A stretch of DNA of 64,000 nucleotides from Eledone cirrhosa (Eukaryota): assembly GCA_964016885.1 (NCBI GenBank), contig OZ024741.1:188294001-188358000 (forward strand), written 5' to 3'. The first letter of the stretch is position 1. Every line of letters begins with the position of its first letter. A program made the translations under genes and the position numbers. The notes beneath the pieces are model-generated. The model had not been told where the DNA came from. It ran no database searches and worked only from the letters and a program-made list of their open reading frames with translations. This document shows positions 6,740 through 57,805 of the stretch, piece by piece.

Positions 6740-6872
6740 TATTTAACGATCGTTTCTAGGATATATATGTGTTAGAATTGGCATGCATATTCAACAGATC
6801 TATGTACAAAATTATACAAACTATCAAGATTAAATATACATACCAAACACACATATATGCCGTCTTCAGATA
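6740..6872 (-). ncRNA. Hammerhead-like motif, long stem II subfamily (partly degenerate)
   Basis: CTGAAGA ... ~105 nt ... GAAA CGATCG TT. Shares the palindromic stem III ACGATCGT and internal atctgttga..tatgca with the 28513 copy. Stem I is imperfect. Confidence 0.5.
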
Positions 6873-7331
6873 TATATATATATATATATATATATATATA
6901 TATATATATATATATATATATATATATATATAAATATACATATACATATATAAATATATATATATAAATAAATATACATATACATATATATATATATAAA
7001 TAAATATACATATATAAATATACATATATATATATATATAAATATACATATATATATATATATATATATATACATACATATATATATATATATATATATA
7101 CATACATATATATATATACATATACATATATATATATATATATATATATATAAATAAATATACATATACATATATAAATATATATATATAAATAAATATA
7201 CATATACATATATATATATATAAATAAATATACATATATAAATATACATATATATATATATATATATAAATATATTTTGTTTCTGAATTTGTTTAGCAAG
7301 ATTCTTTATCTGAAAACGTGTGTTGAAATCG

Positions 7332-7800
7332 ATATTGTTATACTTTGGGAGGGTCATGTTGCCAATAAGAAACACAAGCACCAGTTGCTTTCACTCCAAT
7401 TTATTATAAATTAAATTATAAATTAAAAAATTTATAAATTTCTAGTGGTTGGTTGGTTCCACAACCGGACAGTTGTTCATATATTGTCAAAGTTCTTTCG
7501 TCACACATTCTGTGACCTCTTCAGTGACTGGGGATTCTTTTCTTTGTTTTGTGCCTCTCCTTTGTTCTGTCCTACGCCAGGAGAGGCACAAAATAAAGAA
7601 AACAATCCCCAGACACTGAAGAGGTCACAGAATGTGTGACAAAAGAACTTTGACAATATATGAACAACCGTCCGGTTGTGGAACCAACCAACTGGAAAAT
7701 ATTTTTAAATTTATAATTTAATTTATAATAAATTGGAGTGAAAGCAACTGGTGCTTGTGTTTCTTATTGGCAACATGACCCTCCCAAAGTATAACAATAT
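7332..7800. repeat. Long palindrome (~225-bp arms, 17-nt spacer), putative inverted Penelope-like terminus
   Basis: atattgttatactttgggagggtcatgttgcc...gtgcctctcct is the near-exact reverse complement of aggagaggcac...ggcaacatgaccctcccaaagtataacaatat. Each arm carries a hammerhead-like motif. Confidence 0.92.
7486..7528 (-). ncRNA. Minimal hammerhead-like motif (extra nucleotide before stem II, CUU site)
   Basis: gtca CTGAAGA g gtcaca-gaatg-tgtgac GAAA gaac TT tgac: stem I gtca/tgac, 6-bp stem II. The plus-arm copy at 7612-7654 has GAAA changed to AAAA. Confidence 0.55.
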
Positions 7801-8448
7801 ATAAATATACATATATATAAATATATATATATATATATATATATATATATATATATATATATATATATATATATATATAAATATATATATATATAAATAT
7901 ATATATACATATATATATAAATATATATATAAATATATATATAAATATATGTATATATATAAATATATGTATATATATAAATATATGTATATATATAAAT
8001 ATATGTATATATATAAATATATGTATATATATAAATATTTGTATATATATATAAATATTTGTATATATATAAATATATGTATATATATAAATATATGTAT
8101 ATATATAAATATATGTATATATATAAATATATGTATATATATAAATATATGTATATATATAAATATATGTATATATATAAATATATGTATATATATATAT
8201 ATATATATGTATATATATATATATATATGTATATATATATATATATATATATATATAAATATATATATATATATAAATATATATATATATGTATATATAT
8301 ATATATATATGTATATATATATATATATATATATATATATAAATATATATATATATATAAATATATATATATATATATAAATATATATATATATATATAT
8401 ATATAAATATATATATATATATAAATATATATATATATATAAATATAC

Positions 8449-54300: not shown

Positions 54301-57300
54301 GGCAGAAGTGGTAAAACATCAGAAGAAATGCTGTGCAGTATTTATTCCGATTCCTTGCATTCTGAGTTCAAATTCTGCTTTTACTTTCCAGGGTCAATAA
54401 ATAAAGTGCTAGTCTAGAGCATTGAACTGGTGAAATCATTAGAGCAACAGATGAGGTGCATTTCAGTATTTGTTCCAGCAATTTACATTTTGGGTTCAAA
54501 CTCATCTACAGCCTAGTTGGGTGGTAGGTTTAATCTGTCATCTGTCTTATCACCACCATCTGGCATTTGGATGCCTTTAGCAGAGTCCATTTTGTTGGAA
54601 GCTTCAGACAAGGTCTTCAGTTTGAGGACACCTTCCCTTCCTCCCCACCAATCTTGGAGTTCTCTGAAAAAAGGGTTATCAGTACTGCTCTTCCCTCCCT
54701 GACTAAACAATAAAAAACAAGGAGAAAGACAAACAGACAGAAAGATACACTAATGCAGTATATTTCAAACAAGTCAATTTTGCTATCACAGTTTCTTGTG
54801 AGGCTGGAAATTTAAGAAAATTTAAGAAAAGGATTAGCAATGGATGTAAGGAAAAAGATATTTATAGGGATTGAACAGAAATTGGGTATTAACAAATAGA
54901 GGTAGGTTTTAAACTTCAAATATCTCATAAATTACTTCCATTTTGGGTTTATATGTGGCTGGTATGCCTAACAAGCAGCCTAGTTTAGAACCACCCACTG
55001 TTCCTTTAATGTTTTTAGTAGAGTTTTCTCTACTGTAAATATTCAGACCAGCCGTACCTTCCTTTGGTTCCCCACCTAACCATATTGTTCCTGCAGATGT
55101 TCAGGCAAAATATTAATTATACTAATCTGGTAGGGTAGGGACTGCAAAAGTTATGGGCACTGCTCTTCTTTTCTGATTATCTTGTAAAAGTAGAATTATA
55201 TGCTAAATATTTGATTATATAATATTTCCTTAACCTTTTGGCATTTAAACTAGTCATATCCAGCCAGAATTCTTTCACTTATTTCTGTTCAAACTGGCTG
55301 TAACCAGCCTCTCATACTGATGTTAAGGTATTGTTCTCAAAATAAATAATATCAAAATCTCATAGATTCAATATTATGTGAGAGAATTATGTGAGGTAGA
55401 GTATCAGATGAGATGTCTTGCAATGTTCGTTCCTGGTACTTTGCTTTCCAACTTCAGTGGTTTATAAGGCTGCCAACTTAATCCACTACACAGATAAATA
55501 CGAGCAACTGATGCTTGTAGCAGAGCCCACTCTGTTGTAAGCAATTAGGCCAGGTCTCCAGTTTGAGGATACTTTACTCTATCCCTCCCACCAATCTCAG
55601 AGACTGTGAAAAGCACAAGTCTTTCATTCCTGACTAAACAGTAAAAAGAAAAAAAAATATTTGAAGAAGGTATATAAATAAACTAACATAAACTGAATAA
55701 AAGTTCAACAAAACCTAGAGACTAAGGAAACTGTAGGTGATGTTTATCTCAGTAATGTTTGGAAAATATGAATATGTTTGTTATGGGTTAGTAGCATACA
55801 AGCTAAGTCATGTTTGTAAAGAAAGTCTATCAGTAAAACAAACTCTCCCTCAGTTATTATAACAAGCAGCAAAGTTATGTTAATAGTGATATCATGCATA
55901 AAGTTTATAAATTTATCATAAGCAGGCATATGGATTTGTAATGTATGTAACAGAAAATAAACAGGCGGAGCTTCTCTTGGTATGCACATAAGCATGTGAT
56001 TTAATAAAAGATGCTTTTATTTGTAATTAAACAATCAGCAAACAAAAACCAGTCAATGATTGTCCAATAAACAGCACACAGAAGAAATTAGCAGTTAGGC
56101 ATAATGGAGTGAGAGAAAGAGAAAGAAAATCTATAAAGCCGATAAAAAAGACCACAGAATAAATATCAATAATTATGACAATCTCTCTCTCTATCTGTAT
56201 TAATAATGAAATAACATTTTAACATGTAATTAACATTGATTGAATAATAGAAGAAGATTGTTGAAGAAAACACCAAATCAACAGCCAATTATATTAGATG
56301 GTGATGATGATATCCATATTCATAAGGTGCAAGAATGGCTGTGTGATTAAGAAGTTTACTTTCGTGGTCATGTGATTTCAAGTTTGATCCCAGTTGTGTG
56401 ACATCTTGAGTAAGTGTCTTCTATTGTATGTAGCCTTGAACTAACCAATGCCTTGTTAGTGAAATTGGTAGACAGAAACTGCACAGAAGCCCACTGTGTG
56501 TGGTTGTGTGTGTATGTGCAAGTATGTACATGCATGGGTGTTTTGCTTGGTGTGTCTTGTACAGACACCACAAGGACAGCTGGTCTCATCCAGCATGGAA
56601 AGATGGATGATAATGATTGAGATCATTCATATTCTTTTCACTTCCTTAGAAAAATGAAAATGAAAATTACAGTTAACACCTCTGTAGTTTTAGATGGCCT
56701 TCTATTTGGTTGCTTCTGAAAGGTAGGACATGTCTTGGGGGCTTTAATGATAAGGGCCCTGGTCCTATAATGAAAAGCAATGTGAAATGAAGCTCAAAAA
56801 ATCAATGTCCTGTCTAATTCAAGAATTGAACCCACAACCTTATGGCCAAAACCATAACCACTAGGCCACAAGTCTTCACTTCTTTGGCTGGTAATCATTG
56901 ACCATAGAAGAAAGTTAAGTACTAAAAAAAAATCACTGGTCACTACAAGAATTAACTTTCTGAACTCTGCATCAATGAGAGAGCCTCTACATGACATAAC
57001 ATGCTAAATCTTAAATAAAAAAATTAGATAATGTAGTTCTAAAATGACAGGTTGGTCACAACTGGAATATCTAACCCTGTCCCAATGACAGAGCCTCTAC
57101 ATGGTCACTCAACGTGCTAGAAATAGTAGCCAAATTAAAAAATACATCACTTCTAAAAATACAAGTTATTCGCAACTGGAATAATTTCTGTTCACAATTC
57201 TGTGGATGGAGCCAGATCAACCTGGCCTAGATGATTGCCCACATGTACAAAAATAAGTATAGATCTGCTCTCAAGAGTGACCAGAGTACTAAAGAACAAC

Positions 57301-57776
57301 ACGTAGCTGAATTAGAAAAGAAATCCCCAACATGAAAGCAAAACCTGGAATCACAAAAAACTTAGTAAAGGGACCTTAACTTCTGATGAAGTTGTAGAGG
57401 TACCATTCTGATACAACATGTCTTGGGAATTTTAAACCCAGTTCAGCCAACCCCTCTCCAGGCTGGAACACAGCTGATTTCTTCCAGAGAAAGAAAGAGA
57501 AAGATGTATCAAAGGAAGAATTGACTCCAGTTCTGGACTGATATCTACAGGATTTTGAGTTCAGAGCACAGTAAGGTGGAACAAACAGCAAGGCATTTTT
57601 AATCCGATGCCCTAACGGCTAGTATGTAGGAAACAAAACAGGTCATACACAAACACACATATATATATGGTTAACTGAACACATACATGCTTTCTCTCCC
57701 AAAAAATGTTTCAGTTTCTTCCTTTTCTGACTTCCTTCTATCTTTCTATTTCTTATCTTATATCCCATTCTATCTT

Positions 57777-57805
57777 CTGATGAAGGGCTAAGGTCTGAAA
57801 TGTTA
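57777..57805 (+). ncRNA. Degenerate minimal hammerhead remnant
   Basis: CTGATGA agggctaaggtct GAAA tgtta. Core present but stems decayed. Confidence 0.35.

Follow-up and report, generated by a model that had tools for sequence, protein, structure and literature searches.

Minimal type-I hammerhead ribozymes are well described from Penelope-like elements (PLEs), where they have a short stem I, an extra nucleotide after A9 and a palindromic stem III, and where they occur as single dispersed copies or as opposite-strand pairs 100-700 bp apart (PMC4209133). The same traits are found among the hammerhead motifs in a 64,000-nucleotide stretch of the Eledone cirrhosa genome that overlaps the gene FBXO11 (GenBank assembly GCA_964016885.1, contig OZ024741.1, positions 188,294,001 to 188,358,000 of the forward strand; hereafter the window). 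We conclude with good confidence that the window holds 14 type-I hammerhead folds in short repeated stubs, likely all of PLE type, that the stubs were probably deposited by run-off reverse transcription and that the FBXO11 pre-mRNA is likely left uncut. Most of the sites are ordinary representatives of a known class, and the novelty is modest, residing in a long form of stem II, in the genome-wide load and in the clustering of stub ends.

Among described elements, the Hydra-clade PLEs, which include the already catalogued octopus element Hydra-1_Obim of Octopus bimaculoides with its short hammerhead, have in common with families of the window (lettered A to I below) a C-terminal GIY-YIG domain, the RWK-like, DKT, CxCX5C, CxxC and CxH motifs, (TA)n targets, a hammerhead near the 3' end, an inverted copy and a tail (PMC8557442). 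Catalogued Hydra elements reach about 3 kb at most, a length below 3 kb being typical though not strict for the clade, and their listed hammerhead loops do not exceed 10 nt, whereas family D measures 7.6 kb with a microsatellite-rich 3' region of about 4.3 kb and has a stem II of 103-116 nt; likewise, the tails are 50-125 bp here and 30-40 bp in Hydra-clade PLEs (PMC8557442). Family B is instead likened by motif to the Neptune clade, with which it has a CX4CxxC linker, two Cys between VY and YIG, His residues and a C-terminal endonuclease (EN) in common, as far as its broken 3' parts extend (PMC8557442).

Two further systems are relevant. Poseidon PAc of Anolis belongs to a different clade and resembles the elements studied here in its two 3' ends (the tail), its AT-rich targets and the apparent use of uncleaved RNA as template; its reverse transcriptase (RT) starts were mapped in vitro, and the available part of that source does not report a clustering of genomic 5' ends (PMC11167929). 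Non-LTR retrozymes are, like family C, tandem units that lack open reading frames (ORFs) and carry one type-I hammerhead each, and the 712 bp of family C fall within their range of 51-972 bp (PMC7229834; bioRxiv 10.64898/2026.07.22.740005). Family C differs from them in forming 1.2-1.5-mers, in its fixed 3' end in (TA)n and in its 95-nt stem II.

Hammerhead motifs and their repeat families

Site-by-site inspection recognised 14 motifs in the window, eight of them with intact core and stems and six broken. Thirteen had been listed in a first-pass annotation of the same sequence, and its coordinates are correct, although they refer to the beginning of stem I for the plus strand or to the low end of the motif on the minus strand, whereas positions given here are those of core nucleotide C3; all 13 lie in repeated type-I hammerhead families. 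The fourteenth, at 22349 on the plus strand, had been overlooked and is intact (AUA). The five motifs for which closed stems had been reported (22730, 28513, 38681, 39071 and 51267) are all among the eight intact ones, 28513 on condition that its stem II is 95 nt long. At most sites stem III is a palindrome or close to one.

We used a strict type-I descriptor that required the core, at least 3 bp in stem I, at least 3 bp in stem II, a 2-bp stem III and an NUH site. It matched the window six times, compared with a mean of 0.07 and a maximum of 2 in 200 local dinucleotide shuffles, so that the frequency is above chance in the very comparison that had been proposed for it. A loose CTGANGA..GAAA pattern gave 13 matches against 5.2 in shuffles, and a descriptor relaxed by one mismatch showed no enrichment (2 window matches against 0.85). 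Permitting a long stem II added the motif at 28518; two other long-stem-II matches, at 38833 and 38973, were discarded as artefacts of a hairpin centre. Chance resemblance in AT-rich DNA would explain the 5.2 loose matches per shuffled window, but the strict excess, the homologous copies of every site and the covariation of stem II leave it a practically negligible probability, and we count it refuted. The window motifs are real sequence features.

Of the motif-model searches suggested in the first-pass annotation, the descriptors gave matches and the Rfam models gave none at gathering score in the window; in an E-value scan no hammerhead appeared either, only miRNA-type matches on hairpins and microsatellites among the 150 of 269 matches listed. 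Rfam also gave no gathering match in a canonical-looking hammerhead array elsewhere in the genome (L077), and for this reason the Rfam hammerhead test is insensitive here. Three motifs had been said to be directly followed by AATAAA. The hexamer lies 4-5 nt past the cut site at 22771, 39076 and 11077, and there is none after 38730. At 51325 and 22349 the hexamer overlaps H17 and stem I. A function as poly(A) signal was rejected, since AATAAA is part of stem I in these two cases and the context is AT-rich.

Each motif sits in a repeat with homologous copies elsewhere, represented by hundreds to thousands of search candidates (the family sizes below are such candidates, not copy numbers). The repeats in the window were mapped by masked self-BLAST, as (TA)n swamped ordinary repeat finders. 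Families A, B and D are flanked by (TA)n and have a tail at one of their ends and an inverted, 5'-truncated copy whose junction varies. With its one-sided tail of about 120 bp, family A (38730/39076; 377 candidates, best matches at 94-99% identity) is joined at one locus (L018) to broken frames that encode an RT, a CxCX5C linker and a GIY-YIG domain. Family D (6869; 608 candidates, 97-100% identical) is represented by a copy, L106, in which the 7.6-kb unit has 685-bp direct pseudo-long terminal repeats (pLTRs) at 99.7% identity, the long microsatellite-rich 3' region and a stop-free frame of 785 aa, with a frameshift near the N-terminus. The RT motifs RVRWRAY and SDKTG (RWK-like and DKT) were read in another natural copy of family D (L119), at a point where copies of A and I are 5'-truncated. 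The combination of a CxCX5C linker with CxxC and CxH around E/N and no CCHH, which marks the Hydra clade, is complete in D and A and partial in I. Upstream of family I (25690; 2496 candidates) there are pieces of Hydra-type ORFs (L264), and copies of this family display compensatory swaps in stem I. Family B (7524/7616; 2837 candidates) follows the EN part of a GIY-YIG protein with Neptune-type zinc fingers (L147, L150, L172); its frames contain a CX2-5CxxC linker and CCHH in the C-terminal EN, the copies seen being broken and limited to 3' parts. By these motifs, A, D and I would be Hydra-type and B Neptune-type PLEs.

Sequence of microsatellite-like composition (TA/CA/TG) occupies about 4.3 kb at L106:4345-8630 and is part of family D, co-copied in L107-L109; one of 40 evenly spaced genome samples (L050) matched a near-full copy of this family. 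Some of the microsatellite load of the genome may come from PLEs.

In family C (28518; 3248 candidates) the unit measures 712 bp, and its longest frame is 63 aa. It forms tandems of 1.2-1.5 units; pairs of ribozymes separated by about 700-710 bp are present in L029/L111, L110 and L037, and partial tandems in L031, L034 and L035. Families C and D have stem III in common, as well as 31 nt within the long stem II (81%, E 0.011), which is weak evidence that C may descend from a D-like element. Both kinds of origin that the first-pass annotation had proposed are thus represented, namely termini of several PLE families, with RT/GIY-YIG ORFs upstream in A, B, D and I, and a non-autonomous, retrozyme-like family in the ORF-less tandem unit C.

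Several points weigh against extending a PLE origin to all sites. The BLAST of flanks, which had been put forward as a check, tied A, D, I and B to Penelope ORFs and C to an ORF-less tandem, but no ORF link was found within the fetched flanks of the six stubs at 10636, 11077, 21668, 22349, 22771 and 51325. The link for family H (57777) consists of adjacency, at 0.9-1.6 kb in two loci. Pfam gave no match for the two PLE ORFs tested, and the clades were assigned by visual comparison of motifs with those of PMC8557442.

One might suppose that most motifs belong to ORF-less units, similar to retrozymes or to short interspersed elements (SINEs), that spread via circular RNA and are not truncated autonomous PLEs. 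Family C, ORF-less and tandem, would fit, as would the canonical array of L077, outside the window, with its 11 repeats of 310 bp, and family E (22771; 1027 candidates), which has two 3' ends (the tail) and no recognisable ORF in up to 1.3 kb of common upstream sequence. However, families A, B, D and I continue into RT/EN ORFs, the 4.3-kb non-coding 3' region of D makes the absence of an ORF within 1.3 kb weak evidence, and stub ends at -7 (see below) have no obvious origin on a circle. We consider this explanation improbable. The stubs are likely pieces of PLE pLTRs; four families are linked to RT/GIY-YIG ORFs, and the others are likely to be PLE stubs as well.

The array in L077 deserves a description of its own. 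It covers positions 281-3381 of this sample (G000:C3:190000001-190010000) on the minus strand and consists of a 310-bp unit repeated in tandem at least 11 times, every repeat having a type-I hammerhead of canonical appearance (6-bp stem I, 5-bp stem II and ACGCGU in stem III). It is a candidate for a classical non-LTR retrozyme.

Positions of the stub ends

For this analysis, 5' ends were taken from loci found with queries located 3' of the cut site, for which the 5' extent is unselected, and 30 of 40 scored loci were fetched per family. Queries of this kind were adopted since the clustering seen in the first 12 D loci could reflect query bias. In family D, 10 of the 30 ends fall at -9..-1 relative to C3, with the mode at -7, the A of a TCA, and with the window copy at 0; among the remaining ends, 9 extend past -599, 5 lie inside stem II and one is located 4 nt before the cut site. 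In family A, 11 of 30 ends fall at -129..-121 and 7 at -105..-102, both clusters being at TCA, and 17 of 26 ends are at most 2 nt from the A of a TCA, for which 11% of positions qualify. Copies that start 5' of the cut site make up 30/30 in D, 28/30 in A and 29/30 in B, and L128 is the sole copy whose start is no more than 5 nt from the cut. TCA resembles the metazoan initiator. The pile-up of 5' ends at this trinucleotide suggests that RT ran off the end of an uncleaved transcript. An initiator-like TCACT has been noted in a PLE pLTR (PMC3846280), and PLE transcription starts lie in the pLTR (PMC8557442).

In the Anolis PLE, RT was shown to begin at two sites inside the RNA, and this accounts for the tail; the RT uses mainly uncleaved RNA, and cleavage by the ribozyme needs the element's protein (PMC11167929). 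A similar course of events would account for the stubs. Nicked AT-rich DNA would provide the primer for RT, and synthesis would begin at two sites within the RNA, as seen in vitro for another PLE, giving two 3' ends (the tail). RT probably begins some hundreds of bases 3' of the ribozyme and continues until it runs off the 5' end of the uncleaved transcript. With the ribozyme placed between transcript start and RT start, short run-off cDNAs would carry it whole, a step that we hold to be somewhat better than an even bet. If two such cDNAs were joined at their 5' ends, an inverted pair would result, with a motif on each strand.

Some observations sit badly with this mechanism. The match to TCA was spotted post hoc. 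Ends in family B are broadly spread over -74..-38, around AAGATGGCG, which we take to be a YY1-like site, and are not at TCA, while family C has no sharp 5'-end cluster. The cluster at -122 in family A also falls on an 8-bp palindrome, TCATATGA, and two family A loci (L190, L191) have common flanks.

The palindrome points to a different origin of the clusters, by which they would stem from stalling or fold-back self-priming of RT at RNA structures and palindromes, or from an antisense template, and not from transcript starts. The main A cluster is centred on TCATATGA, the D cluster coincides with the 5' strand of a 10-bp stem I, 5 of the 30 D ends lie in the long stem II, and PLE palindromes have been read as a sign of self-priming on an antisense template (PMC3846280). 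Set against this, there is no palindrome at -7 in D, the second A cluster (-105) is at a TCA without palindrome, non-inverted copies end at the same places (L124 at -7 in D; L194, L188 and L202 in A), and RT must already have passed the longer stem II hairpin before it stopped. We regard stalling or fold-back as a serious rival, above all for the palindrome of A, but as less probable than run-off at the transcript start, which we prefer.

Covariation and length of stem II

Covariation was examined in 24 representative types from all fetched loci, chosen without regard to stem II. In the basal part of stem II, 177 of 240 cells pair, compared with 113.7 +/- 7.1 when partners are shuffled (maximum 138 in 2000). 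Stem II thus covaries across families, the outcome that the first-pass annotation had named as a check. It has to be said against the strength of this result that the 24 types are related, such that the contrast overstates significance and is not a probability. Position 4 of stem II is a C.C mismatch in 14 of the 24 types (families A, D, F and G and their relatives), flanked by covarying pairs; it is possibly a tertiary or protein contact, and the available part of PMC4209133 makes no mention of it.

Stem II spans 95 nt in family C and 103-116 nt between the core halves in D and related subfamilies. In family D it is closed by C.A, G-Y, G-C and C.C, followed by a long helix, and divergent copies in L060 have G-C in place of A-U pairs at its base. 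The C.A at 10.1/11.1 may lower the activity of the family D ribozyme. The hammerhead is the minimum-free-energy structure for the single natural D copy tested, but an RNAalifold consensus of eight D-like sequences did not recover it (covariation about 0, 4 of 41 pairs compensatory). The model of the distal structure of the long stem II in D is accordingly weak and not established. Outside the window, further types with a long stem II were met in L007 (+, 91 nt), L013 (+, 62 nt), L206 (-, 83 nt) and L085 (-, 63 nt). Family D is young, with many identical copies, and descriptors limited to short stems overlook its hammerhead. A literature search, of incomplete coverage that may bear on novelty, found no report of a long stem II in PLE hammerheads or of genomic 5' ends at PLE promoters.

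Genomic load, host gene and implications

To place the window in its genome, we applied the same strict descriptor, which misses families C, D, H and I, to 40 stretches of 10 kb each, taken at even spacing from 20 large contigs. The sample contained 36 strict matches per 400 kb (25 without one 11-copy array of a 310-bp tandem unit), compared with 0.35 in shuffles. At this rate 4-6 strict motifs are expected in 64 kb, and the probability of six or more is 0.21-0.52. The six motifs of the window are hence ordinary, its earlier description as a dense collection is not borne out, and we rejected the notion of a ribozyme cluster, the density being similar in the evenly spaced samples. The flanks are sparser, with only 6 strict matches in 230 kb, and the window is at most about twofold denser than its neighbourhood.

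For the genome as a whole, the sample gives about 190,000 strict motifs without arrays (95% bootstrap interval 97,000-292,000) and about 270,000 with them. The total is estimated at about 100,000-300,000 and the load at approximately one motif per 11-16 kb, and the six matches in the 230-kb flanks indicate the lower half of this range. Published counts, obtained with different descriptors, are in the thousands for minimal PLE hammerheads, with about 9,000 in Xenopus tropicalis (PMC4209133), and 126,247 hammerhead motifs are listed for axolotl (PMC7229834), a number that the load here may exceed despite the much larger genome of axolotl. We found no cephalopod ribozyme survey in the literature, as judged by titles and the beginnings of abstracts, and the main text of a 2026 repeat annotation of O. 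vulgaris does not mention ribozymes.

The window has a GC content of 34% in a 3.0-Gb assembly and is rich in (TA)n, with fragments of long interspersed elements (LINEs). FBXO11 is on the minus strand and is recognised by its exons (Table 1), an octopus FBXO11-like protein having 100% identity over the F-box exon. Intron 2 extends over about 5366-29720 (about 24 kb) and intron 1 from about 29925 to beyond the window end (about 75 kb). As the first coding exon lies some 41 kb past the window end, every hammerhead site is intronic, within these two introns, and none is upstream of the gene; the first-pass annotation had placed part of them upstream of an FBXO11 intron, which is not confirmed.

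Table 1. Hammerhead-bearing stubs and FBXO11 exons, in window coordinates
Feature	Position	Strand	Core C3	First-pass coordinate	Description
FBXO11 F-box exon	5219..5368	-			about aa 100-149 of octopus homolog P0001; tblastn 98%; Pfam F-box
Family D stub	6540..6869	-	6869	6740	H17 6745; 106-nt stem II; stem I 5' strand lost, replaced by (TA)n
Family B inverted pair	7292..7789	both	7524-, 7616+	7486 (for 7524)	7524 intact (CUU); 7616 broken (G12A); one-sided tail at about 7292-7342
Divergent B-like stub	10529..10777	+	10636		broken by C3U
E-like stub	10983..11260	+	11077		broken; C.A at stem I base
B'-type stub	21437..21760	-	21668		broken by G12U; stem II covaries with family B
Family G stub	22240..22440	+	22349		intact; 41-bp inverted end
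Family E stub	22685..23030	-	22771	22730	intact (GUC); 3-bp stem I
Family I stub	25553..25745	+	25690	25684	intact (GUA); 4-bp stem III; weak U.U-closed stem II; inverted tail copy
Family C stub	28439..28810	+	28518	28513	intact (GUA); 95-nt stem II; H17 28631
FBXO11 exon, aa 35-103	29721..29927	-			tblastn 75%
Family A inverted pair	38634..39294	both	38730-, 39076+		both intact (AUA); one-sided tail at about 39176-39294
Family F stub	51222..51357	-	51325	51267	intact (AUA); 8-bp stem I
Decayed family H stub	57737..57851	+	57777		without stem I; CpG-type decay
FBXO11 first coding exon	105365-105472 (window-equivalent)	-			about 41 kb past window end; 94% in L248

Six motifs are in sense orientation to FBXO11 (6869, 7524, 21668, 22771, 38730 and 51325), and it had been proposed that such copies could cut the host pre-mRNA co-transcriptionally. 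If 22771 and 51325, and perhaps 38730 and 7524, did so, they could tune the output of the gene. This is conceivable insofar as every site is intronic, the core is intact in 22771 as in 51325, an exchange of stem III between 51325 (AUAUGUAU) and other sense AUA-type motifs of intron 1 (38730; L024:5256) is feasible in principle and conserved intronic hammerheads are known in amniotes (PMC6155905). The state of the copies argues otherwise. Two of them (6869 and 21668) are broken; two (7524 and 38730) have a predicted stem probability of 0.00 once the inverted arm, which is transcribed first, joins the fold; and the last two (22771 and 51325) have a stem III of only 2 bp and a predicted stem I probability of at most 0.05 in a context of 100-300 nt. 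Strict sense motifs are not depleted in about 100 kb of intron (5 sense, 2 antisense), and nothing sets the sites apart from other copies of their high-copy families. Moreover, cleavage by a minimal PLE ribozyme was absent in the monomer and weak in the dimer (PMC4209133), and another PLE ribozyme needed the protein of its element in order to cut, while RNA-seq reads did not end at the cut site (PMC11167929). Because the sense copies are broken, predicted to be hairpin-locked or dimer-dependent and minimal PLE ribozymes were inactive as monomers, cutting of the FBXO11 pre-mRNA is quite unlikely and the proposal is not supported. With the intron copies broken, sequestered or devoid of a dimer partner, cleavage would very probably be rare.

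The inverted pairs place predicted double-stranded stems of 220-260 bp in pre-mRNAs. Coleoids have heavy A-to-I editing, for which such stems could matter.

Other features of the window were also recorded. Long inverted repeats without hammerhead cores are located at 23938-24495 and 48795-49093, and a 112-bp tandem repeat of an abundant SINE-like family at 24319-24772. Segments 16623-17434 and 20493-21299 form a pair with 93% identity, in which the 3' end of an RTE-like LINE is joined to a SINE-like segment. Degenerate tandem repeats of about 75 bp each fill 46821-47444, and two CTGATGA cores that failed the descriptor face each other on opposite strands, 36 bp apart, at 61946-61990. A weak tRNA-like Rfam match (28.7 bits; gathering score 29) at 942-999 on the plus strand heads a SINE-like repeat.

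The clustered stub ends predict both the exact transcript starts and the use of an uncleaved template. We tentatively suggest, as a proposal that we ourselves find rather doubtful in its entirety, that this genome has one of the highest hammerhead loads known, owing to the placement of the ribozyme between transcript start and RT start in its PLEs, and that its run-off stubs, thousands in number, record uncleaved, capped RNA as the template in vivo. The ribozyme would then be an off-switch that removes the 5' leader and the cap, and the new 95-116-nt stem II of families C and D, probably gated by protein, would control it.

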